Below, piece by piece: positions 4,646 through 54,000 of a stretch of DNA of 64,000 nucleotides. The stretch's first letter is position 1; each line of letters begins with the position of its first letter. Below the pieces are notes generated by a model. It was not told the DNA's origin. It was given only the letters and a program-made list of their open reading frames with translations, and made no database searches. Origin of the DNA: Schmidtea nova. Its lineage: Eukaryota. The position numbers and the translations under genes are program-made. The DNA lies in assembly GCA_044892505.1 (NCBI GenBank), contig CM097882.1, positions 488,436,001 to 488,500,000 of the forward strand, in the 5' to 3' direction.

Positions 4646-4701
<56 letters not shown>

Positions 4702-7700
4702 TTATTAATATTTCCCAAACATCGACTCACTTACGTCTTGGAGCGATTGATAAAGTTTATCTTCTGCCCGAAACATAAGCGACCAAATTTGTAGATATAC
4801 CTGAATACGACTAACATTGGGATCAAAATTTAATAACAACCAAATGATCAAACCTATCACAGAATTGTGGTAATTCATTTTTCAAATCACTATTGATTTC
4901 CTGAAACTGATCTTGTGCACTTTTCAACTCATCTCCAACCTTATCGGATCGAATCAAATTACCGATAAAATACTTTGTAAAATGAAAAATTAATTTTACT
5001 TTTTTAATTTTTATACTGTCGGGCCTCTTGCTATTTCTGTAGGATTCGAACACGGTTTTTTGTTTCTGTAATTCATTGGCCTTCTTATTGCATTTTTCAA
5101 TCGATCTCTGTGAAAATATTATTGTCATAAATAGTGTAGGTTTATATTTATTATTGAATTAACAACTTGATTTTCAACAGTTTTTAGAGTAAATCAGTGT
5201 AGAATTTTCAGTAAGATATTGATTTGAATGTCACATCAAAGTGCAATTTGAGTATTACAACATTTCAGCACAGATAACAACCAATTTTGCAATCATAATA
5301 GTTCTTTACTTTGATAAATTTTATTGATTATTATTTCATCTATTTTTATTTGCTTTGTTATGGGATTTGTAGCAATTTTTAATGGCAGACTAGATTCGAG
5401 TTTATGTGGAATTTCACCAGAGATAACAAACAACCAATCAGATCCCAGAATCTGACGACTCTGCTACTGGACTTCATTGAATATTGCAGTTGTAAAAAGT
5501 TTAAAAATTCGTTTATATTTCACTTTCTAAGTTGTATTTTTTAGCGTTTTTTGTAATTTGCTTTCTAGACTTTTTTTTGCAAATTTGTTAAAACTATCAA
5601 TAAAATTAATAACAGGTGACAAACGAACTTAAAAATTTTTGAATTAAATAGACAATTAGAAATAAAAAGAACGACTATGGAAGAAAATTAGAATATACAA
5701 TTTTGGGACATAAGAAACTTTATATTTAAGATTTAAACAATATACTGTTATAGCAAATAATATCAAGTTGAGTCAAAAGTTATGCATATTCTTTAGTTAT
5801 TTAAAGTTATTGTTTCACCAGATTATTTAAGCATAACATTTATTTGCAACATTTGTTATCATTTTAAAGCCCTTGAAAAGGTAAATTAAACTACACTTTA
5901 ATATTTACATTTTTAAAGCACTATTCAATTATTTTTATTTTTTAGAATGATTGAAGAAAAGGCAGTATTTCGTGCCTTATTACGACATTGTTAAGAAAAA
6001 GACCTTACAGCAGCTGCGACTCAAGAAATCTGCAACGCAAAAGGAAAGGATGTGTTCAAGAAAAATAGAGCTCAGTGGTAGTTTCGTCGCTTTAATCATG
6101 GAAATACCAGTTTTAAAGATCAGGAACATTCAGGCCGACTTCAGTGATGAACAAGTTTTGTGTCTTAGTGGAGCGGCAGCCCAATACTAGCACCGGCAGG
6201 CTGTCAAAGGAGCTCGGCCATTCTCAAACACATTCCGAGTACCCAACGAATTGACAAATATTCAAGCCCAGTGTCGAGTTGATCTTTGCAGCGAACTACT
6301 TGATAACCCAAGAGACAGTCGTTTTTGGAAGCGAATTATTACAGAAGATAAAAAGTGAGTTTTCTTTCGTAATTCCAGTCGAGGTAAGCAGTGGCTTCAG
6401 CCTGGCCAGCCGCCAACTTAGCAAGTGGTTTCTTCAGGTCGCTTCGAAACGAGAGTGATGTTGTGTGTTTGGTAGAATTATGATGGATCTGTGAACTGGG
6501 AAATTGTTCCGTGTGGGCAAGCTATCGATGGTAATCTTTACATTGAACAACTACAGTGAGTTCATGATGTTTTGAGCACTCGATACCCAGATCTGTTGAA
6601 TCGTGTCACCCATCATAAATGATGGAAGGAAAATAAATTTTAGTTTTTATTCTTTCATTAATTTTTTTATATTGAATGTTAGAAGACATTTACAAATAAC
6701 AAATTATAATCACATTAGATTAAAAAAACTTTAGCGTTACACACAGAATGACATATTGCGGAAATTAAATATGTAATAATTAGAAATTAAAATATTTATA
6801 ATATATTTATTTTAATTTAATTTACTTTTTTCAATTTACTGCGTTACTTACAGACAGAAGGAAACAAAAAATTGAGTATAATTATTATTGATTTTTATTA
6901 ATAACTTAGAAAATAATTATCATTGTTTTATCAATTTATTATCGTTGTTTAATTTCCAAACCTTTGCAAAACTTTTATGAATAATTGATGTAAAAATCTT
7001 CAAATAAATTATTCACTTTTCCTTCTTTACTCAGACTGATCATGGAAATCTTGCACGATATAATTGTAAAAAGTGCTCAAGAAGTATTTATTAATTAGAT
7101 AATTATAATTCATTGCCCTTAAATAGGTGTTTTGGAACTAATAATATTTAATGATTTATTATTTAAAGCAGAGTCTATTAATAAATCTTGATTTTTAATC
7201 ACAACAATTTATATATAAATCATAAAAACTATGTGAATAATAATAATAATAATAAAAGTTTAACAATAACAACAATGAAAATAACATTGAATAATTCAAT
7301 GTATTCCATCTAATTTAAGTGATATTTGCATTTAACCGTAATACGGTTCTTATCTTAATCATTTCGGGAAAGTCGGCCTGATGCATGCTGGTTTGTAAGT
7401 GTCTGTGTGTTTCTTTGCGCATGTCTGTGTGTGCTTGCGTGCTGGTTTGTGTCTGCCTGTGCGTAATCGGGCCGGTTTGGTATTTGTTACCGCTGATAAA
7501 ATATAGAATTTAAACATTCGATCAATGGAAATGAAAATGTTCACTGCATTCAATGTATGAGCCGATTAATTGTGACTAATATATAAATGGCATCAATTAA
7601 TTGTACTAATAACTGCTAATATCAATTCGTCAATTAATTTCTACCATTAAAAATTTGTTGAGTTGGATGACTTTTTTAAGATGCTTGATTTTGTTGTAAT

Positions 7701-9303: not shown

Positions 9304-12300
9304 ATTAATATTAGAATTACAAATGCCTCAGTGTTTTAATATTCAGAATTACACGTGGACATTTTTAAATTGTTATAAAATTTAATAAATATTAATGGAA
9401 GAAGAGTTGAATTTAATTGCTTCTAACATGGCGACTACGACCACGGATCTTTTAATAAGCAGACTGCTTCCTGGAAAATTCCACAAGGGTGATAATATTG
9501 ATGATTTTATCAAAGATTGTCAGAGATTTTTCAGCGTTACGAAGACTTCTATCAAAATGCAACTAATTTTGACCACTACTCTTTTGGATAGATCTTTATT
9601 GGAAGATTATGCAGATGCAGAAGGAAAAACTATTGAAGAGAAACATCTTGGTGCTTTTTCAAAGCCAACTTCATTAATAGAAGATTTAAAAGAAACTTTA
9701 AGTTATGAACAAGAGTCTGATTCAGTCGAAATATTTATAGAGAAAATTAATAAATTAATGAAAAAAATAATTGCACACAAATGGGATGAAGAAGAGATAG
9801 AAAAATGCCTTTTAATAAGCTGTTCAAGAGATAAAGAAGTTAAAAAAGAAGTTGAAATGAAAGATATAAAAACTGCCGATGAAATAAAATCACCAATCAA
9901 GAAATTAGAAAAAGTTGACAAAATTATGGGCCAAATTAATGTGTTGAAGACTTCATCAGTTACATTCAACAACAGAAATTATAGAGATGCTGCTCGAAGA
10001 GGACTCGTGGATAAAAACAATACCTTGAAGCAAAGAGATCCGAATAATCGATATGTCGAATGCTGGACATGCAACAAAACGGGTCACATTAGTAGAGAAT
10101 GTCAAATGAAAAAAAGAACCCAGTGCTTTGCATGTGGAGTGGAACGGCATGTACGTCGAGAATGTCCAACAACTCAATGTCAAAGATGTCGATTGCGTGG
10201 ACACAAAGAAAATGATTGTTACACCAACTTAGAAAGAAGAAGATTTGGAACTAATCAGAATGGAGAAAACCATAATTACTATCAAATCGATCAATGAAAT
10301 ATCATCTAAATACACCATTACCCCTTCTTTATTTAGATCTTTTAATACTTTTGTAATTAATTCTTGAAATGTACCTGGCGCAGCTGCAATGCCAAATGGC
10401 ATTCGATTAAAACAAAATTGGCCTTCTTTATAAGAAAAAGCTATCTTTTCTTTAGATTCAATATCCAATCTTACTTGATAATAAGCGTTCCCGAGATCTA
10501 TAGAACTAAAGTATTTAGATCCATGCAGTGTATCTAAGATTTCTTCAACGTTCGGCATTGGAAAAGCTTGTCTTTCGGTAATTTTATTCAGTTGCCTAAA
10601 GTCTAAACAAAGTCTAATATCTTTTTTCTCTTTTTTCCACACGCATACTAACGGAGTATTCCAAGGCGAGTTACATTTCATTTATGATATAATTATTTTC
10701 TAAATTTTTTATTGCATTATTTATTTTCTCCTCTAAATTGATAGGCTCTCTTCTCGGTTTTATTATTATTGGTTCACCTGTTGTAATAATTTTATGTTCA
10801 ATTAAATCCGTACATCCAATATCCCACTTATCTGTCATAAAACATTTATTTTTCTTTACAATTTCTAACAGTTTATTATTCTAGTATAATTTTAAAGTTT
10901 CTATTGTTTTCTGTAATCTTTCAGTATTTGTAATTTTTCTTCCAAATTTCGCTTCTATTTCACATATAAAATCATTCGATTTTTCACATTTACCCTCTAT
11001 ATATCTTAATTCTATTCCAAACTGTTTCTGCAATTCCACTCCTCCAATTATATCTGGGACAACGTTTGTAACTACAAGAAATGTTACTTTTCTTGCTATA
11101 TTACCAATTCTAACATCAATTTGTATCTTTCCTACTGTATCCAGTTTGCTATCATTTGTACATCTTAATTTATCGTTTGTCCTTATTATTTCAACATTTT
11201 CTAATTTATCCACAACTGCTTTAGTCATAACATTAACTCTAGCTCCCGTATCTAACAAACATTCCATTTTATGGCCCTGAATTTCAAGAGTTGTACTCGG
11301 TCTACCTTGAATTTTATTATATGCCAATCGTGGCTCTTCCCATTCTTCGTCAGTGAATATATTTTGCTTCTCCTTAAAATTTGAATTAACCAATTTTTCA
11401 TTCATCCACATTTTATCATTTCTCTCTGTATTCTCTAATTTTTTTAAAAACTTATAAACTTTTTCTGCTATCATTTTATTACCACATTCTATTTCTTTAA
11501 ATTTACTATCTTTTTGATTTTTAAAATTTTTAATATTATTAATTTAATAAAGTCTGGTCAGCATTAAAAAAATTACTAAAATTACGTACATTACTACTTG
11601 TTAAATTACATATTTTATTCGATAAAGGGGTACGAGCATGTTGTAGCATATGGATCACATGCAATGGGCTCACACGAAAGAGGATATTGCATTACACGAA
11701 AGGAACTTTTGGCTATTTACTTTTTTTGTCGTCATTTCAATCATTATTTATATGGTAAACGATTTGTCTTACGCACTGACCATAAAGTGATTACTTTTAT
11801 GTTAACGACAAAAAAGCCAATAACAGCACAATTCCAAACATGGATAAATTATTTAAGTAATTTGGACATAAAAATGGAGTTCAGAATAGGTACTGCGCAT
11901 ACTAATGTATATATGCTTTCTAGAAATACCTGTGGAAAATGTGGACAATGTGCAATGGAGCATGAAAATCCAAAATCAGGAAAATTAAAAACTAGTTTGT
12001 TAACTTTGATGACAGAAAATAACGGATATGAATGGCAAAAGGATAATGCAGAGATAAAAAAATATAAAAGATAGAATTAATAGAAATGAAAAGGATAAAT
12101 TTTATTTAAAAAATAATATAGTCTACACAAATAAAGACAAAATTTGGATACCAGAAATTTAAAGACGAAAAATGATAAAGAAAACACATTTTCTATTATG
12201 TCATGCAGGGGTAGAAAAAGTAATGAAATACATTCAGAACAATTTTGATATGTTAGACTTGGCAAAGGAAATTAAGGCGACTATCTCTACATGTGAATCA

Positions 12301-19000: not shown

Positions 19001-22000
19001 AATCAGTTAGTCATCCGAAAAACTTTAAATTATTTAGATTTATGTTTTACAAAGTGACATTTTTATAAAAATATTAAACTTCAGTTTACCTATATTCAGT
19101 ATTTTAAAAAATATTCAGTTACAGTAAAGCCTCCTACAACGCGATACTTCTACAACGCGTTTTCGCTACAACGCGATTTATAAATTACGACAATTTTTCT
19201 CACAAAGCTAGGTTTTTTCCACAACGCGATTTAAAAAAATGTACGTTTTAAAAAAATTACAGTGTATAAATACAGAAATGTGTGTGTATTTTGCAGTTAA
19301 AGTAAATTTAAGATGAAAAGAAGTTTTATTATACGTACATACATACATATTTTATTTTCTATACATGTGTATGTTAAAACAGGTAAGTAAGTTTAGATAT
19401 ATTTTTTTATAAATTAATTATAATATAATTATATGTTTTAGTTCTAATTTTTAAAAACGTGAATTATTTTGTTGAATTTTATTAATTTATTATAATTTTA
19501 TTGAAGACTTCCTAACCTAATCTTGAATATTAACTTATTAAAATTTCATTTTATTAATTTAAATGCAGTTTTTTATACTTGGAACCTAACCCCTTTTTAT
19601 CTATAGAGTTCATGTCTCTTACAACGCAACGTTTCCTAAGAACGTATCCCGTCGCGTTGTAGAAGGGTTGACTGAATATATTGTAAAAATCAATTATTCT
19701 TTTTATTATTATTCTTTTTTATTACTCTACTATTATTGACTAGTTCGTTGCCCACAGCTTGAAGCCGAATGTTTGTTCTTTATCATGGTATCGTAGGAAC
19801 AGTTGACAAATAGCTTACCATATATTCAACTCTTGTTGAAAAAGGATGAAGTTTATCCTTGGATTTATTCAAAAATGTATTCATATTATTGAAATAAAGT
19901 TTAAATATTATTTGTAATAAAAATATAGAAAAATTTAAATTATTTAAACAGTTTAAAAACTAAATTGGCCTAATAATAATATATATTTTCGTTCATAACT
20001 GACTGACTAACTGTGTACCGCTATTATAATTTTTATAGGAATAGTTTTTCAAGAGGCTTTTCATTAAAAATAATTTTTTGTCAAATATTTTTCATTGTTA
20101 TTCATTTGCATAATATTAGCAGAAATATTTCGAGTATATTAAATTAAAGTATTTTTTATTTTTCAACGGGCGCTTTACAACTAGCTTGTATAATATAATA
20201 ATTAATAATATCTAGTTCAAATTGTATAACCCTTTTAATTAATTTATGTCTATATAGTATAGTACAGCGTTTCTCAATCCTTTTACGATTATCGCCCATT
20301 TCCAATTGCTAAAAATTCAAATCGCCCACTAGTGGGCGATATCGCCCATGTTGGGAAACACTGGGGTAAAGTAGATGTAACTACATGTAAGGTGATGTGT
20401 GTGCATCATATATTGTTATACTATAAAGATTGACAAATTGAGGACAGAGGTATATATAGATGTAGGTCATTTATAGGACTTGTTTGTGGGTGTAAAATTT
20501 TAAGGCAAACAGTGGCAAAAAGGTTGACATATGTAAAAACAAAATGGCAAAACATCGCCCACCTAAAATTTCAAGTCGCCCAGGTTGGGAAACACTGGCA
20601 TAGTATTTACTGATAAATATATGACAGAATAGTTAATATAATTTACAATAATATTATATACACTATCCTTTTTATATAGTGCAATTATATATTTATTTTA
20701 ATTTACTTGTTTTAATTTACTGTGTTACTTACAGAAAGAAGGGAAAAATTGCTTTTTTTTATTATTAATTAACCTATTAATAACTTTAAAAATAATTATC
20801 ATTGTTTTATCAATTTATTATCGTTGTTTAATTTCCAAACCTATGCAAAACTTTTATGAATAATTGATGTGAAAATCCTCAAATAAATTATTCACATTTC
20901 CTTCTTTACTCTGACTGATCATGGAAATCTTGCACGATATAATTGTTAAATGTGCTCAAGAAATATTTATTAATTAGAATCTAATTATTAGATAATTATA
21001 ATTAATTGCCCTTAAATATTAGTGTTTTGGAACTAATAATATTTAATGATTTATTAGAGATTTATAAATTTCAAAAAAAATCGTAAAAAGTACATACGAA
21101 GGAGAGATTTAGAAATGTTGAATGCACTACGGTTGCTGAAAATAAGAATGGACGGATCTATTAGCACTACAAGACATCAATATTCCAAACGTAAAATCAC
21201 GTGACGACGAAAATAGATCTAAACGTGGCCAGCAAATGATAATAGAGGCACACGCACATAAGTAGAACATTAATTGCCAGCAAAGCAGAACCAATGAGTA
21301 TAAATAATTAAGGCTTCTGTACTTCCAGTTTATTGTAAATACAGTGGCTTTTAAAATATTTTTATTATTTAAATGTGATCAAGTATCAAGTGATTATCTG
21401 GTAAGTGATTAAGTGTCATGTTATTAATTCTCTTTGAACTCTACTACACATTCGCTTTTTCTGTAATTCTGTAACTATTAGCATGAAATAATAATATTAC
21501 ATTAAATATTTTATTCCACTCTCACTATTTTCATCTTCGTTTCTATTGCAAATGAATAAGTTATCTAGTGTTAAATTTTACAGGTGTTCGGATTTCTCTA
21601 AACAGGCACAAAATAAAATAAAAAGAACAAAAAACTGAGTGCAAATCGATAAAAATTAAATATATTTTGCGGGGGAAACAGCTATTAGGGGTGTTAAATA
21701 GTGAGACGAATCCAATTATAATAATATATTTAGTTATTATTAATATCAATAATTCCCATAAGAGATGACTAAAGATCAAAATTTCTTTAAATAAGTACAC
21801 TTATTATAAGTGTACTTTTTTAAAGAAATTTTGATCTATAGTCATCCATTATTGGAATTATTGATATTAATAATAAAAAAAGATCAAAGGTGAAAAAAGA
21901 TAATTATGATAATATTTAGTTATAACTATTAAATACAAACTAATTAAAAACTTAATTAAGTAATAATAAACCATAGTTCTATTAAATCCCGAGTCATTAT

Positions 22001-29066: not shown

Positions 29067-29565
29067 CTATAAATTATTCTAAATGGTTTTTAAACTAAAT
29101 TTAATTTATAAATGCCTTGTGTCTGTCTTTGAATATTTTAAACATCTTTTTATTCATACTTTTCTATTATTTGATAATTCTACAGTTTTATTGTTACAAC
29201 TTAAAGTAATAATGATATATATAAACAAAAGTAGGTTTTGAATTGATGATTAATTTTCTTGTTATTCATTATTTTAATTTTTAAAAAGTAGATTTGAATT
29301 TATTATTTGTAATAAATTATGCTTTAGTTTTATTATATTATTTTAAATAAATTTTGGATAAAAACGATTTTAATAAAAAAAATAGATTTAAAATTGCTTG
29401 TAAATAATTTAATTTTAATCGAAAATTTTAAGAAACTTATGTTCTTCAATGAGTGTTTTAGAAATAATATAGACGGATAATATTTTGAATTATAGTTAGT
29501 AACTTATTTTTCAATTTAAATAAATAAAAAATCCAAATAATAATAATTCTATATTAAATTATAAA

Positions 29566-29666
29566 TATCATAATTATCTTTTTTCACCTTTGATCTTTTT
29601 TTATTATTATTATCAATAATTCCCATAATGATGACTATAGTCATCATTATGGGAATTATTGATAAT
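29566..29666. repeat. Foldback family copy with a 58-bp loopless perfect palindrome (29609-29666)
   Basis: ATTATCAATAATTCCCATAATGATGACTA|TAGTCATCATTATGGGAATTATTGATAAT, preceded by the family outer end TATCATAATTATCTTTTTTCACCTTTGATC. Related copies at 4520-4653, 14809-15015, 21735-21911 and 35907-36498. Confidence 0.85.
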
Positions 29667-31099
29667 TATAATAAATTATAAATAATTCTATTTTAAATAT
29701 ATACAGTATCTTTGTCAAAGGTAAGGTTGTCTTAGAAATGCTATATCAGTGAGTGCTAAGTTGTGCCCTCTATAGATTTGTGCAAAATTTATATTTTTTA
29801 CTATATACTTTGAAACTCTATAACTTGGTTATTACCGAACTTTATCTTTCAAAATAAGAACCATTAAATTTGATAAACTTTTACAAACGAGTTAGTTTGT
29901 TTAAACCCTTACAATAAAAGTTCTTTTTTCAGGAAACTGTTGGGGTTATTTTTAAGTCATGTTGAGGATACATTTATTCATGTTTTTTGTTTATCAAAAT
30001 AATAAAGTAAAAATTTATTGAGGGTTATTTTTAAGTCGTGTTGAGGATACCTAAATAATAAATATAATATTGGCACAAAAAAAATAATCGGGGGAAATTA
30101 ACAGGGTGAATGATGTGATGTTTAGAAAAACGAAAAAATGGTTTGGAGAACAAAACTTATTATGATATTCAATCAAATTTACCATCTTCATTTTTTTATT
30201 AAAATTTTTCAATTTGAAATATTTTTCAATTTTAACTTTTAAATTTAAAATCTTTTCTAAATTTTAAATTTCACATTTTCAATATTTTGTAACCAATAAC
30301 TTTAAAAAATTTTAGATGCTTCCAGCTTCCGTCATAATTAATATTATTATTATTTCTTTTTTAAAAACAAACAGATATTTTTCTAATTAATTAATATTTT
30401 GCAAATTTTTAAAATCAATTAATCAATGTTGTTATTACGTTAAAGAATATAAATCTTTTACATAAATGATTTATAAGAATTATTATAAAGATAAATCAAA
30501 GAATTTATAAGTTTATTAATTAAAAACTAAAAATAACAGAAATTTTTTAGGATATTTTTTCGATTTTTCTAAATTTAATAACAATGGATTTTGTGGATAA
30601 TCGTGACTGAACAATAAATAATCGATAATAACAAAATTTTATTAAATATAAAATATATAATGGTGCTGAGTTTTTCTTATGTTGTTTAAACTCCATCTTC
30701 TCTTGCGTTTTTTCTGCTTTTTTCTTTATATATTAAAACAAACTTTTATTTAAATTATAATTTTTTATATATAGTTTATTATTAATATACATATTCTAAT
30801 TTAGTATATAAAGAATATTATTATTATGCATAAAGCAGAGGCACTACAATAGTCCAAGCCGAAGTACGCGGAGCGTATTGCGACTGAAAGAAACGGAAGA
30901 GGAACAAGTATCGACGGTAGAGTCTAGCAGATAATTTGCGAGGTATTGCAGAGGACGGCGGATTTAGTTGGATGTATTTGAGCCGGGCAAAGGGTCGGTG
31001 AGTGGAATTGAGGCGAAGCGGTCAGTACCGGGGTAGAACACAGTAAGAGTCTTCCTCCAAATCTTCGTCGACTGGGAGGTGGAGGTGGTACGTTGTATT

Positions 31100-35311: not shown

Positions 35312-35721
35312 GATGTGCACAATGCAAATTTTGGTCTCAATTCCTTTACTGGAGATGTTTGATTTATTGCTTCCTGGTTCGATGCTTCTTGATAAAACGC
35401 TTTATCGAATTTATTCATAAACGATTTTTTCCGAAGTTTTTAACTTTTCTATTTTGCATTTAAGATCAACTTGTTTATTTTTTGATCGAAGAATGATACA
35501 AGATCTGGTTTAAAGTTTCTAAATTTTTCAAAGAAACTATCAAAGTTCTTATTCGACAAAATCAGTTGATTTGGTTTCATAAATGAAGATATAATGACAG
35601 AATTGCCTAGTTTAATCAAACACTCCTTTTGTGTGGAATTATTCTTGGATTTAGACTATTCTATCAGGATTTCTAACACAAATTATCGTGACTTAACAAT
35701 AAAGGATCGATAATAACAAAA

Positions 35722-35865
35722 TTTTATTAAATATAAAATATATAATGGTGCTGAGTTTTTCTTATGTTGTTTAAACTCCATCTTCTCTTGCATTTTTTTT
35801 TGCTTTTTCCTTTGTATATTAAAACAAACTTTTATTTAAATTATAATTTCTTATATAGTGTATTA

Positions 35866-35906
<41 letters not shown>

Positions 35907-36234
35907 ATTATCAATAATTCTCATAATGACTATAGATCAAAATTTTTTTTTATAAACAATAACACAATATTTCGGCACAGCCTTTATCAAGTGTGTATTT
36001 CACACACTTGATAAAGGCTGTGCCGAAATATTGTGTTATTGTTTATAAAAAAAAATTTTGATCTATAGTCATTATGAGAATTATTGATAATTTTATTAAA
36101 TATAAAATATATAATGGTGCTGAGTTTTTCTTATGTTGTTTAAACTCCATCTTCTCTTGCATTTTTTTTTGCTTTTTCCTTTGTATATTAAAACAAACTT
36201 TTATTTAAATTATAATTTCTTATATAGTGTATTA

Positions 36235-36273
<39 letters not shown>

Positions 36274-36460
36274 ATCAATAATTCTCATAATGACTATAGA
36301 TCAAAATTTTTTTTTATAAACAATAACACAATATTTCGGCACAGCCTTTATCAAGTGTGTATTTCACACACTTGATAAAGGCTGTGCCGAAATATTGTGT
36401 TATTGTTTATAAAAAAAAATTTTGATCTATAGTCATTATGAGAATTATTGATAATAATAA
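35722..36460 (+). repeat. Tandem duplication (~365-bp unit: LTR piece, (TA)n, 185-bp perfect hairpin)
   Basis: Duplicated ORFs at 35764 and 36133; hairpins 35907-36091 and 36271-36455 with 90-bp arms and a 5-nt loop. Confidence 0.9.
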
Positions 36461-36519
36461 TAAAAAAAGATCAAAGGTGAAAAAAGATAATTATGATAAT
36501 ATATATATATATATATATA

Positions 36520-41235: not shown

Positions 41236-41579
41236 ATAACTTGTGAGGATTTGAATCATTTGATGAGTGCTGCAAGGAGTGGAGGGACTGCATGTTTGAA
41301 ATTCTCTGGTCAATTGAATGCTGATTTGAGAAAATAAGCTTTTAACATCGTGCAATTTCCACGTTTGCATTTCCTCGTGCCAGGATCCGCCCAATTAACA
41401 TGTCGAGGAAGCAAACAATATCACGCATCAACAGTCCCAGCGGACCACAATGACAGCCAACGACAGGCTTTGAAAGATTCCGATTTGCAACTAGAAAGAA
41501 TAAATATATATTATAACGAGGCTACTGGTGGAACGTATGTTCCCCAAGCAGTTTTGATTGATGTGGAACCAGAAGATTT
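41236..41579 (+). pseudogene. TUBB: Beta-tubulin fragments in permuted order
   Basis: DLNHLMS...[25 protein letters not shown]...STVP (about residues 220-290) followed by [32 protein letters not shown] (about residues 39-70); in-frame stop; ends at the gap. Confidence 0.92.
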
Positions 41580-41900: not shown

Positions 41901-44536
41901 AAAATTAATATATCGTCCAAATAAACCATTACTCCATCTTTTCATAAATCCTTTAATATCTTCGTCATGAGCTCTTGAAAAGTGTCTGATGCTGCTGCGA
42001 TGCAAAACGGTATTCAATTAAAACAGAATTGTCCCTCTTTTGTTAAAAAAGCTGTTTTCTCCTGTGATTCTCTATCCAATCTTACCTGATAGTATGCGTT
42101 TCCAAGGTCAATAGAACTAAAATATTTAGCTCTATGCAAAGCATCTAAGATCTTGTCGACATTGGGCATCGGGATCGCTTGGCTTTCAGTAATTTTGTTA
42201 AGTTGTCTTAAGTCCAAACAAAGTCTAATATCCTTCTTTTCTTTTTTCCAAACGCACACTAACGGGGTGTTCCAGGGTGAATTACACTTTCTTATAATAT
42301 TGTTATCCTTCAGATTTTTAATGCCCATGTTTATTTTCTCTTCCAAGTTTATCGTCTGTCTTCTCGACTTTGTCATTATTGGTCCACCAGTTGTTTCAAT
42401 TTTATGTTCAATTAAATCAATGCATCCAATATTCCACATGTCAGCCATGAAAACACATTTATTTCTCTTTATAATTTCTATAAGTAATTTATCTTCTTTT
42501 ACTTTCAACTTCTCTATCGCATATTGGAATCTTTCTTCATTTGTTATATTCTTCCCAAATTTAGCATCAATTTCACATATACGTTCGTTAAATATTATTT
42601 CATTCTCTTGAATCCATCTTAATTCAATACCAAATTGTTTCTGTAATTCTACACCTCCAATAACATCTGGGACAATATTTTGTACTACAGTAAAGGTCAC
42701 TATTTTTCTCATCTTCCCTATCTTTACATCAATTTGAATTTTACCGATAGTCTCCAATTTACTGTCATTTGCACACCTTAGCATTTCATCTGTTTTTATT
42801 ATCTCGACTTATTCCAGTTTATCCAGTACCGCTTTAGACATTACATTAATTCGTGCTTCTGTATCTAACAAACTCTCAATTCCGCGGCCCTGAATTTCAA
42901 ATGTTATACTTGTTCTACCTTGAATTTTATGATAAGTCATACGAGGTCTTTCGTCTTTCGTAAATATATTTTGTTACACTTTGTTCTTTATATTATCGGA
43001 AATTTCATTAATCCACATAATCTTATCTTCATTAATATCAAATGTTTTTTTAGGAAACTGCATACTTTTTCTCCTGTTCTTTCATCGTTAAACGTTATTT
43101 TTCTGTTCTCCTTTTTTATGATCTTTACTGTCACTTTTATAAACATTAAAATTAGTTTTATTATCAATATTATTACATAAATCTTTACTAACAAATTTAA
43201 AATTATTTACATTATTCAAATTATTTACATTATTATAACCAGCATTTTCATCAAAATCAAAATTACCTAATAAATGGCTCTGATCATCGCCTCCTGTGAT
43301 GGAGCTTCCTCGTTTGAGCATTGCATTTTTTCGTATTTCTCTTCGGCTTCACTTGAATAATTTACTTGATAGTTTGCATCTTGATTTCCAATTGCTGCTA
43401 TCTCTCTTCTATTATACTAATTGTTCTGTTGAAATTGGTCCCCTTTATTTTGATATGCTGCATTATTTCTTCCGTTTTGGCTTATTTTTGGCTTAAATCT
43501 TTCTAGATTTGTATAGCATTCCGTTTCTTTGTGACCTCGTAGATTACATCTCCTACACTGGATGTTTGGACATTCTAGGCGTACGTGTCCATATAATCCA
43601 CATCCAAAACACTGAATCTTTCTCTTCATAGTAGATTCTTGGCTTATATGACCTGGTTTTTGTCATGTCCAGCATACGAAGTTTTTAGTCACTTCCAATG
43701 GTTTTGACATTGGCATCACATTTGTCTGTACAGGTCTTTGAACGGCATTTCTGTAGCTTTTGACAGGCTTCGGATAGGCTATAGGTCGAATGGTGTTAGC
43801 ATGACCTAAAGCTTTATTCATTTTCTCAACTTTTCTAATTGTGCTTTTAATTTCTTCTGACGTCTTTAGTTCTGGCATTTCTATTTCTTTTTTAACTTTT
43901 TTCTCTCGAGTCCCATTCATGAGCAAGCATTTTTAATTTCTTCTTCGTTTCACTCATGTCGTAATAACCTTTTAGTTAATTTCTCTACTTTTTCGAGGAA
44001 GCGGTCTGCTGAATCGGATCTTTATTCATAATTTAGAGATTTTTTTAAGTCTTCGAAAAATGATTTTGGCCTCAAAAATGCTGTTCTCAGCTTTTCCTCT
44101 AATGTTTTTCCTTCAGCTTTTTCATATTTATCATATAATGGTTTATCCAACAGTGTGGTAACCAGAATCATCTGCATCTTGACAGATATTTTCGTAATAT
44201 TAAACGACTTTTGACATTCTTTAATGAATTCTTCCAGGTCATCGTCCCTGTGAAATCTTTCTGGTAACATCCTGCTAATCAATAGGTTTGTTGGCGTGGT
44301 CTCCGTATTAGTAGCAACAATATCGAATTAATTTTCTGTATCCATTAAAAAGATCAAATTATTTGAAGGCTATTCTCCTTTAATTTTGATGTTGATTTAA
44401 ATGCTGGCTTATTTTTAAATAAATAATAACATATATTTTAAGCTTAATTTAATTTATTAATTTAAAATGTTTATATAAAAATTTATGAAATCTGATAAAT
44501 ACAATTTAAATGTTTATTAGCAGTTTTAATTTAAAN
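41901..44536 (-). mobile_element. Second copy of the 9.2-kb Gypsy family (gag, protease, RT N-terminal half), bounded by gaps
   Basis: MISRMLPERF gag, CFGCGLYGHVRLEC, SLLDTEARIN, SPWNTPLVCV, YLDD; colinear, not inverted. Confidence 0.9.
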
Positions 44537-44783
44537 NNNNNNNNNNNNNNNNNNNNNNNNNNNNNNNNNNNNNNNNNNNNNNNNNNNNNNNNNNNNNNNN
44601 NNNNNNNNNNNNNNNNNNNNNNNNNNNNNNNNNNNNNNNNNNNNNNNNNNNNNNNNNNNNNNNNNNNNNNNNNNNNNNNNNNNNNNNNNNNNNNNNNNNN
44701 NNNNNNNNNNNNNNNNNNNNNNNNNNNNNNNNNNNNNNNNNNNNNNNNNNNNNNNNNNNNNNNNNNNNNNNNNNNNNNNNNNG

Positions 44784-44940
44784 TCGCGTCTGTGTGCGCG
44801 TTGTTGAAATTCATTTTGGTCTCGCGTCTGTGTGTGTTTCTGATTTTTAGTTTTTGTGTCGCGTCTGTGTGCGCAGAGTTAGCTTTTTCTCTCTCGCGTC
44901 CGTGTGCGCATTGCTTCTTGTGGTTCTCGTCTGTGTGCGC
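44784..44940 (+). repeat. Five 16-bp repeats (TCGCGTCTGTGTGCGC) with unrelated 15-22-bp spacers
   Basis: Copies at 44784, 44822, 44859, 44894, ~44925; the array starts at a gap edge. Confidence 0.8.
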
Positions 44941-46220
44941 ATTTGTAATAAATTGATTTGGTCGGAATTTTAATTTTAATTGAATTCTGGGATTTTATTA
45001 AGTTTTATTTGAGTTTTTTTTATTGATCCAATTTGGAAATTGGAATTTCGGGATCTTTTCGAATTTTGCTGAATAATTCTTTGGATTGGAATTATTTCTA
45101 GAACTTTGTGGGGATTTAAAATTTGGTGGAATCGTTTGAATTTATTTGTACACTTGGGAAACTGAGTTGTTTTGTCGATGCTCTTTTAAGATTTAATTGG
45201 ATTTCTGTAGATTTAAAAGAAGGAAATTGTTCTCTGTGATTCAAAGAATTGTTCTTGTATTCGTTATGACTGACTCGAATTCGTTTCATGTTACTATAGA
45301 GTTGATCACATCACATTTTGATCATGTCGGCAACGTTCTCATACAAAAGATTTTAATTAGATGGTTGATATTCAAACTGAAGACGGTGTTTTGGAAACGA
45401 AAGATTGTATTTCTATAGATTGTGGAAATAATATTATATTCCCAAGTGATATCAATCCTACTTTTCAATTTAAGAAAGTTAATTGTGGTTCAAAGTCAAT
45501 TGTGTTATCGAGAATTCAAACATCTGACGTACGTCAACAATCCAATGCTGCTTTTGATGATTTTAGATTAAACAGTGATATCTCTGACACTATGACAGGC
45601 GAATTGCTTATTGATGAACAAAAAAGTTTATTAAAAATGGTCTTGGCTCGATTCAATATTGGTAGCAGAGCGTGATTCCCATCAGGGGACCTCGAAAATC
45701 TTGGAACTTAGACAATACTGTTCTGGCTGTCCAGCCAGAACAAGGTACCTTTGTGTAATATTTGTTGTTGTGATTTTTTTGAACAATTTTTTGGTATTTG
45801 TAAAATTTTGTTTTTGTCCTTTGTTGAAGCATTCCCCCCGCTATATTTAAAGATTTTCTGAATAGGGATAGTGGTACTGTAAGGAGAAAAATAGGGATAG
45901 ATGATAAAAGAATAAGGGGACCCGATGGGATTGCAGCGGTATTTTCGAATTTGCTCTTTGAGGGTTATGTAAACGATACGAAAAAGTTAAATTTTACTTG
46001 TTACCAGAATCGAAAGGTTAAAGAAGTAGACAATGGGGGTAAGGTGCGAGAGTTAAGTTTAATTAATGGAAGGGTGGTGAAAGGTGGAATGGCTCTGCCA
46101 CAGGATATTGGAAAAGAATGCTGCTATGAGCCCCAGCATTCTTTTAAATTCGGGGAAAATATGGGTAGGGAAGGTGCTCGTGATAGGTATCCGCAAGGGG
46201 TTGGGCGATCGAGAGAGGTA

Positions 46221-46447
46221 AGGCAGATATTTGTGAAGACTATGGCAGGAAAACTATCACTCTTAAAGTGGTAATTAATTACATAATTGCGGACGTAAAA
46301 GAGAAAATTCACGACAAAGAGGGAATACCACCTAGTCAACAAAGGTTTACTTACAATTGCAAACTATTAAAGGAAGGACATAGACTGCATGATTACCTGA
46401 TACATGATAAATAGACTATTCATCTATCATTGAGATTGTGTCGATGA
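46221..46447 (+). pseudogene. Decayed ubiquitin domain (76 codons)
   Basis: RQIFVKTMAG(K)TITLKV...VKEKIHDKEGIPPSQQR...LHDY...HLSLRLCR*; one 1-bp deletion near 46251 and two stops; about 41/76 identical to ubiquitin by manual count. Confidence 0.93.
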
Positions 46448-47284
46448 AATGGTGAGGAGGAGGAATTAGAGGAAGGATTGAGAAAGAAGAAGAGTGTTAA
46501 ATATAGATTGACGAGATTGAGAAATAAATGAATGAATGATATGCTGGCAAAAGATGCATCACATGTGTTTGATGAATATTAGAAAGCAATGGAAAGTGCT
46601 TAAGAGTTTTGAAAGACTGTTCGACATCAGCAAAAGATTAGGAAGGTCAGATACAACAACTGTGCTAGATGGGGATTTAAAAGAGATTGAAGAAAAGAAT
46701 GATAAGGTGGAAGAGCTAATTTCGTCAAAAGCCAATCTGCCCGTTAGGTCGAACGACAACAACACAATAAAAGAGGTAGGTGGGAATGAAACAAAGAAAA
46801 ACTAGATAAAATGCAGAAAATACGAATCCAGATATTTGATGGACAACAGAAAGAATACGAAAGTTGGAGAGCTGCTTTCCATGCTTGTGTGGATAGTGCA
46901 CATGCTGAGGATGATGAAATTATGTTACACCTTCAATCATATCTGAAAGGTGAACCGTTAAAGTTGATCGAAAATTTAGGATTTTCTTCAACCGGTTACC
47001 AAATGGCTAAGGAAAATCTCAATAGAAGATATGGCGGTGAAGAACAAAATTATTTAGTTGCTTTTGAAGACATAGACAGATTCCGACCCATTTGTGAAAA
47101 TGGTATGCTAGAAATAGAGGCATTCGTTGGATTATTAGAAACCCTGGAAGTTAGAATAATTAATATTAGACGAGAGGACGAAATGAAGAACAGTTATTTA
47201 TTGAAGAGATGCCTATTATTATTAGATGCTATTAGATGCTATTACTATAGAAAATTTAATAACAGAATCAACCAAAGAAAATAA
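46448..47284 (+). pseudogene. BEL/Pao gag relic (coiled coil plus DUF1759-like)
   Basis: KKKSVKYRLTRLRNK; IRIQIFDGQQKEYESWRAAF...LQSYLKGEPLKLIENLG...AKENLNRRYG. Confidence 0.8.
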
Positions 47285-47549: not shown

Positions 47550-50500
47550 TGTGATAACATATACTAGAACACAAGTACCCATTATAACGTAACCAACACA
47601 GCATTTACCCCAGCAGTCCCGAAACACTTTTTACAGGAGATTCTGCTGGGCTCTACATATCTCTTGTACATAAAACTATATAAAAAGCTCATAAGACCAC
47701 TTAAATAAAACTAATTTTAATAACTAGCATTACATAATTCAGCATTAATTATAATCGAACCAAATAATAGAAACTAAATAACAAATAACAAAGTCACGCA
47801 ATAAAGCTTATTACAATTGGTGTCAGATGGAAAAAGCAACACATTTTCATCATCTTTTTCAACTACTATCTCTTTTAGCATACGTAGTATAGATGTATAA
47901 AGAATAGCGTTTCTGTTGACTGAACACAGTTAATTATATCCTTAAAAAAGCTCATTTTTTCACAAACAAACAAAGCAAGTAAAAATACAAGAAATCAAAC
48001 AATTTTAAGTCCATAAAAAATTGATACAATGATTAACCCATCCCAAATTTTTATAAACCAAAATGGCTCTATGCAAGCATGGTTAAAAGTAGATAATTTG
48101 ACACTATCCTTAATTGGAATAAACTCACCAAGACTAATATGCTCGCACATATTGACGGCACTTTCAAGTCATATCCGCAAGGAATTTGCCTATCAAATAC
48201 AGGTAATCCTCGTTTAAAGCGGTTTACTGGCTCCGTGTTATCTAAAACCGGGTTAAATAAAACTAAAAATTTACATATAAGAAAAAATTATAATAAGAAA
48301 AGAAGTTAAAAATTTAATTATATTTTGAAAAAAATTATCTAACATTTAAAATAATTTTAGTTTAACAACCGCGTTAAACGAGGGTTACCTGTAGATAAAA
48401 TTTCCAATATCAAACAACCCTTTTGAAAAACTGTGCAGCGTATTAGAAAATAGGGATGAAACAAATAAAAAACAAATACAAGAATCTTTCACAAATAACA
48501 TGCAAATAAACATTATCCCAATTAATTTTACAAGACCACAAAAAGCAGAATTTGGAGTACGTCGAAGCAAAAATTGCAAACCTTGACTCAAACCAGCAAA
48601 GAACAGTGCAAAAGCCAGCAACTAAAAATAATGAAACTGAAAGTAAAATGTTGACAGACATGGTCGATAAAATAAATATAGGAGCTTATCTCAGTATAAG
48701 CAGCATTCATGACAACAGAAATAAAATATCTAATCATAAGCAAGATGAGAACGAAAACAGAATTTAACGAAACAAATAAAATCTAAAATAACTTAATAAG
48801 TCAACTTGAAAAAAATAGCAACGGAAAACAAAAGGTTCAAATTAGAACTAAATGAAATTCAAGAAAAAAATCACAAACAAAACTACTATCCAAATCAAAC
48901 AGTGTATAGGCTCAATAGGCCAAAGCCAGACTCAAGAAATCAACACCAAAACTTTCACAACAATAAAAACAAAGAAACAAGAAATAGACAAAAATACTGG
49001 AAACCAGAAATCAGACAAGCAAATCAAAAATTTGTTACTTTCATAACAAATTTAGAGAGAAAAGGCATTCAAATTCACAAAACCCTGTAGATATAAGGAA
49101 ACAAATACAGAAAAACTGAAAACGTTACCAGTAGTTGCACCTACATTTTAGAAGAAACAAAACACTTTCTGAGTACATTCAAATAAAATAGAATTTCTAG
49201 TGGACACATATTCAGTGATATCGAGACTACTATATACTTTGTACAAAAATACCAAAAATCAAAACAAACTACTAACTGCAGCCAATGGATCTAACATAAA
49301 AACGTTTGGTGAACAGGATATAACCCTAACAATAAACAACAAAACTTAGAAATGGACATTCATGATAGTCGAAGTTTAACAAAGAATAATTGGTGCAGAT
49401 TTCTTATCAAAATACAATTTTCTGGTCGGCGCAAAAACTAATGACTTATAGAAAACTCAAAAATAATAAATATACAACACATCATGAGATGCAAAACCAA
49501 GCCGAAGAAGGAAATAGGTGTTGTTTCAAAAAACACTGAAAGCAAAGTCATGTTTCAACAAAGCCAAACAACCCCAGAAATAAGTAAGCTACGTAACCAA
49601 TTCGGTGAATTAACAGAACCAGTTCAATTTAGTGATGATTCAGAACACATAACTAAACATGCGATAATAACCAATGGAAATCTAGTACACGTAAAAATGA
49701 GGCCACTGGATCCCAAAAAAAGAAATTACGATAAACATTTTTGACGAATTGTTGGAAAACAACATTGTCAAACATTCAAATTTAGAATGGTATTCCGCGT
49801 TGATGTTAAAACAAAAAGCAATGGTGAATGGAGAGCCTGTAGCAATTATAGACTTCTAAACAAAATTACAGAATCAGACAGATATCCATTACCAATTATA
49901 AAGGACATAATTAGCCGAAAAAAGGGTGCAAAAAAACTTTTCAAAAATAGATCTGTAAGAAGCATATCATCAGATTTCAATAAGGAAAGAAGACATAAAA
50001 AAGACTGCAATAACAACTCCGGTTAGAATGTTCAAATACAACCAAATGCCGTTCGGTTTATGAAACGCAGCAGCAACTTTTCAGCGATTTACGGATCAAA
50101 CAATGAAAATCAACAAAAACACAATGGCTTATCTGGAGGACATTTTAATAACCAGCCCAGGCAAGGAAACACATTTAAAAGACATAAAGAACGTGTTCGA
50201 GACATTAAAAAACGCAAACTAAAAATCAACGCACAAAAATGCGAATTTATAAAAACCGAAATAAATTTCCTTGGTCATACCTTAAACAAAAAAGGAACAC
50301 AACCAATCGAAGTCAAAATAAACAATATTACAAATTACAAATTGCCAATTACCACTAGGGAATTGAGAAGATTCTTGGGAATGGTAAACTTTTACCTCTC
50401 TTATATTCCCAACTGTAGCAAATTATTGGCACCATTAAATGACATCATTAAAACAAAATGAAACGTCAAAATAAATTGGACACAACAAACAACCGAAGTA

Positions 50501-51030
50501 TTCGAAAAAGCTAAAGAAAGCCTATCACACGCAACATTACTCGGATATCCAGATCCAGAATTAGAATATCAACTAGCAACAGATTGTTCAGGCTTCGCAA
50601 TGTGCGCAACAATTTATCACAACAATCAATTCGGAAAACAATTAATATGATTCTTTTCTTAAAAACTAAAGTCACATCAAATCAGATATTCGACTTTTGA
50701 CAGAAAACTCCTAGCAATACATGATGCAATTAAACATTTCCATCACTTGCTAGAAGGGCAAACTTTTAAAATATATACAGATCACAAACCTCTAAAAAAC
50801 GCAATAGCGATGAAGAATACATCTCCAAGACAAATTCGACAATTATTTTATTTCACAATTTAATTGCACTGGAAATTATGTAGCTGGAAAATCAAACATT
50901 GCAGCAGACGCTCTATCTAGAATAGAAAGCGACATAAACTCAATAGAATTCGAAGAAATAATAGAAACGGAACAAATTAAAGACAAAGAATCCGAAACAA
51001 TAAACAAACTTCCTACAAAACACAACATGT
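47550..51030 (+). mobile_element. Third Gypsy family: 5' LTR, PBS, gag, protease, RT, RNase H; integrase and 3' LTR missing
   Basis: LTR 47550-47815 (TGTGAT...ATTACA, TATA, AATAAA); PBS TGGTGTCAGA at 47818 (tRNA-Leu-type); FLVDT, AANGSNIKTFG, IIGADFL, GEWRACSNYRLLNKITESDRYPLP, RRFLGMVNFY, YTDHKPL, AADALSR. Confidence 0.88.
48200..48391. mobile_element. Tigger/pogo-like MITE nested in the Gypsy leader
   Basis: 25-bp TIRs CAGGTAA(T/C)CCTCGTTTAA(A/C)GCGGTT; TA on both sides. Confidence 0.88.
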
Positions 51031-54000
51031 AACTTAAAAATCATTTTTAACTAAGATTTGTTATTAAATAAAATTTTGTATTTTTTTGAAATAATTTTTT
51101 AGGATATTCCAAGAAATATTCCGAATTGGAATTAGTTATTGACATTTTACATGGCTTTTATCATTCTGATTTAGTAGATTTCGCAAATTCCATTTTAATA
51201 TTTTATTTTCACCATTGAAATTTCAAGTTTTATTTTCTATTTCAAGCATTACCCATTTTTTTGTCCTGAATTATCTAAGACTTCTAAATTATTTCAATTG
51301 CCGTGTAAACATGTTTGATTGTCTATAAATTGAAAATAATTAGACAGTATTATAATTTTGGCTTTTGACAATGGAAAAATTTTGCAAAATAATTTTCAGA
51401 AATTTGAAATTTTATATTAAAATTCATTAAAATAAAAGTTACGATGTCATTTATTTCTTTTATCGATAACTCTCCTGGGAAATATTTCAAATTTTTACCC
51501 AAAATCCCTATTTTCAAAACAAACAAATTTATTATTGGACTCTTAATCGCGTAAAATAATTTACCTTTTAAAGTTTGAATGCATTTTTCATTGTAAATTT
51601 TTTCTTCCACTTTATCTATGACATAATAAATCTTAAACTATGTAAAGATAAAATTGAACATCAACGCAAGTTTTCATTTGACATTGGTAATTTATTACAC
51701 TTATATTATACCGTATAACACTGAATACCACCTTCTATAATATTAGTAGGTATGTGTTGTCAGTGATTACTCATGATTTTTAACTGGATAAAGAAATTTA
51801 CATAAAATTTATCATTTAAATACGACTTTTTTTAGTGATTTACCAACGTTACAATGGATTTATATTCACGCAAAGTAAGAAACTAAAGTAAAATTTATTA
51901 TTTTATAACATTAATCTCCTAAGATATCTAATTTTTTGAAGCATTTTGGAAAAAAGCAATGGATATGCTGATAATAATTTTTGAAATTTTTATATCCATC
52001 TTTTTCTAACTCATTTTGTAATGATTCTTTAATTAGGCCAAATTGTTTATAGTGAAATATTATTGATTTAATTGTGTTTTTTAAGATTCATAACAGTCTT
52101 CCGTTTTGTAGGTAATTTTTCTCATTTACCATGGCATTGACAGTCTTTGCTTTATCAGCCGCTGAAATTCTGTTACATATTTCTGTTATAATATTTTAAA
52201 ATATTAAGCCTATAAAACCTATAAAACCTAAGTTTTCCTAGTTTTTCTTTGTAAATCAAGCACTGCAAAACTTGATTATTCTTCATTAAATGATACTATG
52301 AAAATTTTGATTTAATTATAATAATTATATTAAAAAATAATTTTTACAAATTTGACTGATCATTTTCCCGAAAATATAATGTTGATCCTTCAGAAATATT
52401 GAAATTGCTATAAAAAATTTAATTAATTATAAAAATTTAAAAATAAATCTTCCAATTCGCCCTCTTGAAAAATAATTTTTTTCAAAGATTTTGCTTTTAA
52501 AATTTGTTTCATTTTAAAAATCAATAAAACATAATTGAAATAAATGTTGGGCCAACCAAATAGGATCTAAATACAAAATAATGAATAGAGAATAATAATT
52601 ACCAGTAATCACAGAAGGTTCTATAAAATAAAAGTAAAAAGAAATAAATACTAGTAAACAAAAAACAATAATAACGAATACCCGCGGTTATCACTGAAAG
52701 CAGGAGGAAAGTGGATGGTGGTTGAAAAATATAAAATAATAGTAAATAAATGTTCAAAATAGTAATAAAAGTACGTAAAAGTAATGATAATTATTACCTG
52801 CAGCAACAAATGGAGACCCGAAATAACTAAATTAAACAAAAATCAATTAGCAGAAAATGGAGTAAATAATTATACTGCAAAGGAGAAAAACATATTAAAT
52901 AGAATAATTCAAACAAAATAAATATTTACCCCATTTAAATAAGAAACGAATTCTGAAAATTTAAATGGGTAAATTATAAATGAATTGTGAATAAACAAAT
53001 ATTTACCATTTTAAGTTTATGATCGAGCCCCCTGATTAGCTGATCGAGAAGTGCCAACAGGTATAAATACCAGTGTTGAAATCAGTTAAAAACCTTAGTG
53101 TGTTAAATCTTGTCGCTAATATTTTTGGCATACAGACATATACAGTGAAATATCGCTTTGGAATCTTGACAGAACATTATATTATTTGAAACTGTAATTG
53201 GTGGAATTTGAATAAAGGTATCATTTGATTTATATTTTGTTATGCAAACTTGGTTAAATCCTTCATAGTGTGTTTTTGTTAAATAATAGGAGTACGTCCT
53301 GATGAACTCGCGACCTAATTGGCGATAAGCTGCCTCTCACTCCGACTCCTTGGGGAGGTGGGTGATGTGGTGTACCTGTGCCAAATATGGGAGGAGATTG
53401 TACGGGGGATGCTTGATATGGAGTGATTAAAAAATGCGACAAGTTTGATTCCATATAGATGGTAAATCTACCCATATGACAGAGTGGGGAATTGAATGAA
53501 AGTCATTCTACGGATGTAAAGATTTTTTTGAACAAGGGGGTGGATGGATTTAGGTAACCGCATGTATGAACTTGGCAACTACGACAACAAGTGTAGGGTA
53601 TTGACAATAATACACTCAAAACTGTGTTTCACATAGCTATTTAGGTATAAGCGATATCGACACATAATTGGCAAGAGATCGGAACCGTTTGGGATTTTCC
53701 AAGAATAGAAGAGCGCATATGTTGTAAGCACATGATAGGAAATACTATAAGTACAATGCAATAGCATGATAAGGATGATAAACCCATTACGCAATTTTTT
53801 GCGTAACTTTGATTGATCAGAATAGCATGATTCATTAATCGTTCCAACATTAGCTAAATATTTTAGGGAGAGGAAGATAATTCCACTTCCACATGATACC
53901 GATCATTTCCGCCGGCGAATCATAATGAACACGAAGTTATACACATGGTTAATCGATACCAGAAATTTGTTTTTTTCAACTAAATTCATTCCAGTCACAT

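Follow-up and report, generated by a model that had tools for sequence, protein, structure and literature searches.

Ubiquitin stands directly before Gag in a clade of BEL/Pao retroelements and is a likely cleavage site for host deubiquitinases

A clade of BEL/Pao LTR retroelements carries ubiquitin directly before Gag, as a fixed feature inside its polyprotein. The frame of these elements runs from the 5' LTR through captured host mRNA pieces and a captured ubiquitin into Gag. The ubiquitin is likely a site where host deubiquitinases cut after Gly-Gly, thereby releasing Gag-Pol. One copy of this clade lies in a stretch of 64,000 nucleotides of the Schmidtea nova genome, hereafter the window. 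It is decayed, truncated and dead, a member of the clade's most relaxed lineage.

The window copy begins about 1.2 kb upstream of 45951, the start proposed in an earlier note on this DNA, and breaks off at 47214. All its features are on the + strand. The visible part of the 5' LTR spans 44783-45658; its true start is hidden by an adjoining run of N. The GCGTCTGTGTGCG-type repeats of this LTR match both LTRs of siblings L079 and L073, and the stretch 45190-45640 recurs at all 40 genomic places that were scored. As in siblings, the LTR ends right ahead of the primer-binding site. This site (45660-45677), the only one of its kind in the window, complements the 3' end of a host tRNA-Met, presumably of the initiator type. 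The complementary tRNA 3' end was found in a tandem array in which ARAGORN calls tRNA-Met(CAT) genes. Near 510.09 Mb (L228, G000:C1), tRNA-Met genes occur within a 458-bp unit repeated in tandem, and the tRNA 3'-end pattern has 1034 exact matches in the genome.

Within the LTR, a frame of 104 codons (45361-45675), to which no Pfam family matched, enters the primer site in the phase (GSRA) of the LTR-born frames of intact relatives. The leader from the primer site to ubiquitin (45678-46220) is about 89% common to several siblings and partly replaced in others; no Pfam family scored above the cut-off in it. From 45828 it is stop-free and in phase with the ubiquitin start, which gives 131 upstream codons instead of the 90 counted earlier. 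On the other side of ubiquitin, the helical N-terminal region of Gag (46448-46834) contains stops and two frameshifts and is open in siblings L002, L005, L008 and L028. The capsid-like DUF1759 domain of Gag follows at 46835-47214 (PF03564, E 5.6e-9). Similarity to siblings stops at or before 47215, mostly at 47214. No zinc knuckles, Pol or 3' LTR are found in the window copy, the 5' LTR being the only one left.

Decayed Gypsy-like elements with RVT_1 and RNase H matches flank the copy at 42014-44327 (- strand) and 47825-51032 (+ strand). The first of them has a relative of 71-76% near 10300-11300. Palindromic AT-rich, MITE-like repeats with near-perfect arms of 94-103 nt are located at 4520-4712, 21726-21930, 29504-29691 and 35720-36519; this repeat family also adjoins several BEL insertions elsewhere. 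At 41338-41579 (+ strand), an 80-codon frame resembles by eye two beta-tubulin pieces in reversed order. No match to Pfam or to the BEL copies tested was obtained for this frame, which is possibly another mRNA mosaic.

The ubiquitin unit of the window (46221-46447; PF00240, E 9e-11) was compared codon by codon with 29 other loci. Sequence and Pfam agree with the earlier note that it stands directly in front of Gag and has lost one base. The unit is composed of 227 nt, one base under 76 codons, with the frameshift near codon 10. Met1 is indeed AGG, and the unit runs directly into NGEEEELEEG with neither poly(A) nor spacer at the junction. An additional stop at 46412 had gone unreported. The tail TTG AGA TTG TGT CGA TGA had been interpreted as three changes from LRLRGG. 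The codons are as described, but Cys74 is family-wide (30/30 loci), so that only the last two tail codons are lesions specific to the window copy.

Counted among the 30 loci fetched for this family, named A, are the window locus and three tandem duplicates. The commonest tail of the 30 loci is LRLCGG (19/30) and GG is kept in 23/30. In all 30 loci, I44 and V70 are replaced, K63 has become Asp, R74 has become Cys and position 1 is never Met. The window ubiquitin is identical to host ubiquitin of its own genome at 40 of 76 positions (53%). Because siblings mostly reach 47-53 of 76, this value mixes family-wide changes with decay after insertion. An alignment-guided model of the family-A domain has a beta-grasp fold (mean pLDDT 82.5) and ubiquitin as its top PDB matches; since the alignment contained host ubiquitin, the model weakly suggests that the domain still folds as ubiquitin. 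In a single-sequence fold of ubiquitin with the start of Gag, the ubiquitin part had a pLDDT below 50.

Search of the genome with the junction DNA revealed 1229 candidates. The best 40, which were scored, all match, at 85-92% in every case but the window. About 36 of these matches cover nearly the full query. Ubiquitin is thus present before Gag in other copies of the family, whose lack of it would have told against the earlier proposal. Siblings L002, L005, L008 and L028 are naturally open across leader, ubiquitin and Gag, the X-Ub-GG-Gag frame that had been sought; in L002 (565 aa) both Pfam domains, ubiquitin and DUF1759, are present. Open leader-ubiquitin-Gag frames in relatives also bear out the suggestion that the ubiquitin was internal to a polyprotein. 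The broken window copy, taken by itself, would be compatible with a chance processed ubiquitin pseudogene in one dead element. The recurrence of the junction at every scored place, in six lineages and in proteins from elsewhere leaves this explanation virtually no chance. With many loci, and with neither a target duplication nor a poly(A) of its own around the window ubiquitin, which the earlier note had named as marks of a chance insertion, a processed pseudogene was ruled out.

The same arrangement was recovered with queries blind to ubiquitin. A DUF1759 search found ubiquitin ahead of Gag in 29 of the best 30 loci (28 whole, 1 partial; the other masked). It was also found in 39 of 40 further loci, hand-picked for variety from the same list, the lone miss (L113) being cut by another element. 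With a ubiquitin-less Gag from outside this genome as query, ubiquitin preceded Gag in 30 of 30 matched loci; these three sets overlap in part. A Pfam ubiquitin search gave 2602 candidates. The best 150 were scored: the first 14 are ubiquitin units of the host, and long open frames contain most of the remainder.

Six lineages can be separated by their junctions: A, to which the window copy belongs, A2, B, C, D and E. GG is followed by Asn, Ser, Gly or Met, among others, and never by Pro in the listed junctions. A second ubiquitin, whole or partial, is seen upstream in the leader or in tandem in the L058:1495 region, L136, L138, L139, L144 and L188. A stretch of a young lineage, searched among sequencing runs, matched four runs of one study, and no RNA run was among the matches listed.

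Intact relatives show the architecture of the whole element. Assignment to BEL/Pao was made from Pao-specific Pfam families. Single frames of 2098-2572 aa with ubiquitin, DUF1759, RT, Peptidase_A17 and integrase were found in L070, L151, L153, L154 and L155. In these five, the Pol order protease, RT, RNase H (Peptidase_A17), integrase is complete; four other scanned B copies miss the Pol enzymes beyond the protease. Five lineages possess one frame running through LTR, host-gene piece, ubiquitin, Gag and Pol. Cys/His clusters, possibly zinc knuckles, were seen by eye in sibling frames, and one weak zf-CCHC match was obtained (L154). TG..CA LTR ends and a 5-bp target duplication are observed in L072 (family A), L065 and L070; the duplication is unreadable in many copies set in AAT repeats. 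A purine tract precedes the 3' LTR in siblings. In 11 young copies the two LTRs share 99.6-99.9% identity, a sign that the clade was recently active. In family-A siblings this identity is 95-98%, and pieces of RT and Peptidase_A17 are found in L072 and L079. Most young copies (flanks of L061-L067, L070, L153 and L155) sit in AAT/ATT or AT microsatellites, which suggests a target preference.

In young lineages, the frame starts in the LTR and reads across the primer site. From the primer site to ubiquitin, it is in frame and stop-free in 12/15 copies of B, 7/11 of C, 14/16 of D, 23/28 of E, 8/11 of A2 and 0/15 of A. Family A has in-frame ATGs 44 and 20 codons ahead of ubiquitin in 23/24 and 21/24 copies, respectively, and the long LTR-born leader would therefore be dispensable there.

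The leaders contain pieces of host genes. Just ahead of ubiquitin, Pfam identifies an Hsp70 piece in B and an Hsp90 piece in C and A2. Upstream of the primer site, Pfam matches in other copies correspond to pieces of TMEM131, eIF3L, SAM decarboxylase and a prenyltransferase. An eIF3L piece at locus L203 has two host exons in direct succession, the GT-AG intron of about 50 bases between them being absent, which shows capture from a spliced mRNA. The TMEM131 donor gene was not among the best 40 scored places, all of which were taken by element copies. In B, C and A2, the whole ubiquitin unit is preceded by a 13-residue stump of the preceding ubiquitin repeat. Up to 39 of its 39 bases are those of one host polyubiquitin repeat, which identifies a polyubiquitin mRNA as the donor. 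In L066:886-980 (+ strand), an LTR-born frame, whose start we take by eye to be the N-terminus of calmodulin, is followed by tandem 44-codon repeats that also occur in L155.

Selection acts differently on the pieces of this frame. In three copy pairs of lineage B, which are non-independent and offer small counts, the Hsp70 piece has dN/dS values of 0.76, 0.88 and 1.00. The values of these pairs are 0.17-0.18 in ubiquitin and 0.11-0.20 in Gag. In a fourth pair, which is recombinant, the Hsp70 piece reaches 1.31 and ubiquitin 0.30. One B pair differs in ubiquitin by 9 synonymous and 6 nonsynonymous changes; its Hsp70 piece differs by 14 and 41, respectively (Fisher p 0.027). The ubiquitin of lineage B is thus under purifying selection like Gag, and the Hsp70 piece is near neutral: the cargo is kept as an open frame and ubiquitin is kept as a protein. 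For the Hsp90 pieces (L120, L132, L135, L138 and L139), comparison of C with A2 gives dN/dS values of 1.2-2.5 with few synonymous changes, which reflect either neutral drift with mutational bias or positive selection. Little weight was given to host-versus-element dN/dS, as amino-acid changes are nearly absent from the host branch.

Family A behaves in another way. With 24 copies compared in all pairs, after six duplicate or truncated loci had been set aside, pN/pS is 1.08 for ubiquitin versus 0.41 for the N-terminal region of Gag. Net divergence between subgroups is larger for pN (0.020) than for pS (0.006) in ubiquitin; the Gag values are 0.002 and 0.033. The ubiquitin of family A evolves near-neutrally. 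Constraint on its body was probably relaxed already, and no more than the fold and the LxGG tail was retained. Long relaxed evolution, which the earlier note had deduced from an identity of about 54%, therefore describes the family of the window but does not extend to the younger lineage B, where ubiquitin is constrained.

Twelve ubiquitin domains, from the six lineages and six outside proteins, were compared position by position. L73 is kept in 12/12, G75 in 11/12, G76 in 12/12 and K48 in 10/12. R74 is found in 5/12, I44 in 6/12, V70 in 3/12 and Met1 in 3/12, and K63 drifts. Core positions are hydrophobic in 195 of 201 cells. The domains are identical to host ubiquitin at 34-71 of 76 positions, two of them scored on fewer positions. 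Lineages B, C and A2 keep L8 and I44, and B and C keep an intact LRLRGG.

In a processing signal of the pestivirus type, a complete ubiquitin fold with a terminal GG stands in frame and immediately ahead of the released protein, the next residue being other than Pro; the ubiquitin and Gag of this clade have the same configuration. We favor this reading because the fold and LxGG are kept, the binding patch and Met1 are dispensable, the junction is always at G76 and the next residue is never Pro. Family A is a less clear case. The surfaces around I44, V70, K63 and R74 are contacted by many host hydrolases, and their loss would count against host cleavage in that family. Broad tolerance at position 74 of ubiquitin, in the accessible text of one study, concerns a viral protease and not host enzymes (PMC7567588).

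Three functions had been proposed in the earlier note for a ubiquitin leader. A cleavable leader fits the observed conservation, and an ESCRT-recruiting tag fits it poorly, since the I44/V70 surface drifts and LxGG is kept. Engineered ubiquitin-Gag fusions recruit ESCRT in retroviruses, and a ubiquitin that stays attached to Gag could similarly attract ESCRT or other ubiquitin-binding proteins, for which the L8 and I44 residues of B, C and A2 would be suited. The intact tails of B and C would however be expected to be cut, Pfam reported no envelope domain in the five full frames, and the loss of V70 and I44 beside a near-universal GG is the reverse of what a retained tag predicts. We consider this possibility very improbable.

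The third function, an expression enhancer, belongs to a wider set of effects on the dose or fate of the polyprotein. The unit could aid folding or expression, act as a degradation signal when uncleaved, or, as a freed leader-ubiquitin ending in GG, be conjugated or serve as a decoy. Retention of the fold and of K48 agrees with such effects, as does the variety of residues following GG, since Asn, Ser, Gly and Met differ in N-end-rule stability; they are also compatible with cleavage. Drift of K63, I44 and V70 is unfavorable, conjugation is hypothetical, and because Met1 is mostly lost the unit is not an N-terminal expression tag. Control of dose or fate is accordingly an unlikely main role, though one with some chance.

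Ubiquitin has also moved between the families. A and A2 have a common Gag (pS 0.19-0.42), but most of their ubiquitin differs (pS 0.55-0.65), the last codons excepted. L140 crosses from B to A2 within ubiquitin; by crossovers of this kind, lineages have exchanged their leaders. At synonymous sites, C is nearest to host repeat b (pS 0.44-0.49) and L058 to repeat a (0.29); A2 is nearest to repeat c, more weakly (0.64), most unrelated host units being 0.6-0.95 apart. Repeats a, b and c belong to one host polyubiquitin gene, and the lineages are closest to different ones. These sequence relationships indicate that ubiquitin was exchanged between families and suggest that it was probably recaptured more than once. 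The N-terminal regions of Gag differ across the clade at about half of their nonsynonymous sites.

Such exchange raises the question of whether ubiquitin is a passenger and a recombination hinge, its protein function being incidental: an abundant polyubiquitin mRNA would be packaged and captured repeatedly, and leaders would be swapped at the unit. The crossover of L140, the common Gag of A and A2 with differing ubiquitins, the proximity of lineages to different host repeats and the near-neutral change in family A all agree with this idea. Repeated recapture would also lower the apparent dN/dS between lineages. It does not account, however, for a unit whose end is invariably G76, with Gag next to it, or for a distal GG that is kept when the ubiquitin stump upstream of it decays. 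It also leaves unexplained why GG survives at 34/76 identity and why ubiquitin contrasts with the Hsp70 piece inside lineage B. We therefore hold a pure passenger to be improbable.

The fusion also occurs in proteins from elsewhere. When 1.84 billion representatives were searched with a Gag query lacking ubiquitin, 150 matches were listed, 6 of which have ubiquitin directly before Gag. One of the 6 has an Hsp90 piece, and a seventh protein begins with an LKGG stump. P0012 is a single protein that unites an Hsp90 piece with ubiquitin, Gag and Pol; it was the one fusion among 16 matches of a word-index protein search. A second word-index search was dominated by polyubiquitins. Four related outside Gags that are devoid of ubiquitin (P0021, P0033, P0062 and P0097) start with Met at about the position where GG ends in the fusions. 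The ESM Atlas yielded DUF1759 clusters alone, at 0.80-0.81, below its reliable range.

A quick tree of capsid blocks with midpoint root placed all 17 ubiquitin rows in one branch of 21, with an SH-aLRT of 94, below the value starred by the tool. It contained 123 of 160 rows (37 missed the capsid block), in a sample gathered with a family-A query. The other four rows of the branch are N-terminally short, too short upstream to be judged. None of the 102 rows outside the branch has ubiquitin, 59 of them being long enough upstream to judge. This distribution suggests a single origin of ubiquitin-Gag.

Taken in order, the favored processing mechanism would work as follows. Translation would start in the LTR. 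Host mRNA pieces would be captured by template switching, as in LTR-mediated retroposition. Host deubiquitinases would cut after G76 and give Gag-Pol the same N-terminus whatever stands upstream, which would let the elements tolerate a changing cargo at their front end. A broader account can be put forward tentatively, at somewhat less than even chance. The clade may have outsourced the N-terminus of Gag to the host ubiquitin system, so that everything upstream, the LTR included, became a free capture zone. Ubiquitin would then be both the cut site and a crossover point for leader swaps and for its own renewal from host polyubiquitin mRNA. The cargo might aid expression or escape from silencing, and the LTRs would spread expressible mosaics of host genes.

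If cleavage occurs as proposed, host deubiquitinases are maturation proteases of a retroelement, and the shifting host cargo carried in one frame with Gag is explained. In these elements, the ubiquitin trick of pestiviruses would have a natural and long-lived counterpart. The identity of their ubiquitin to that of the host ranges from 45 to 93%, a natural series with which to learn what surfaces of ubiquitin are required for cleavage. Annotation is also affected, as most ubiquitin and Hsp70 matches in this genome are element cargo. A search limited to open-access papers found no description of a natural ubiquitin-Gag fusion in BEL/Pao; prior annotation of such elements in repeat databases is possible.

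The elements resemble other BEL/Pao elements (Belpaoviridae) in their TG..CA LTRs, 5-bp target duplication, tRNA primer site and polypurine tract. They also have the single Gag-Pol frame with the order DUF1759, protease, RT, Peptidase_A17, integrase. They differ in that the frame begins in the LTR and crosses the primer site, and in that host mRNA pieces and ubiquitin precede Gag.

The closest functional parallel is found in pestiviruses, described here from the accessible parts of two reports. In BVDV Osloss, CP1 and CP Rit, a captured ubiquitin whose last residue is G76 immediately precedes a viral protein and defines the N-terminus of this protein (PMC8310069). In cytopathic BVDV, NS3 is freed from ubiquitin by cellular hydrolases, also where a host-gene piece stands upstream, as in CP Rit; one strain has a ribosomal-protein piece upstream of a ubiquitin without its first three residues (PMC8310069). 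Pestivirus ubiquitin inserts were acquired independently several times (PMC13517609). These are however RNA viruses, in which the inserts are sporadic variants with a ubiquitin identical to that of the host. In the present clade, ubiquitin belongs permanently to a retroelement and has diverged to as little as 45% identity; its cleavage is a prediction.

LTR-mediated retroposition, in which host mRNA pieces are captured by template switching, likewise produces multi-gene host mosaics, often in frame (Tan et al. 2016, PMC5131818). As far as the accessible text describes, the retrocopy there lies inside a discontinuous element. Here, the LTR and the leader hold the pieces, which precede a processing-like unit, and the full Gag-Pol frame is kept. 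Gypsy elements with cargo, planarian Burro and orchid AlkB-Gypsy, are also LTR elements with fixed extra domains derived from hosts (PMC6431247, PMC9289625). They belong to another superfamily, their extra domains are complete functional modules, and the accessible parts of these reports name no ubiquitin unit. Fixation of extra domains in LTR elements is called rare in one of them (PMC9289625), and yet ubiquitin is fixed across the whole present clade. Its cargo is mostly fragmentary and neutral, and ubiquitin is the constant.
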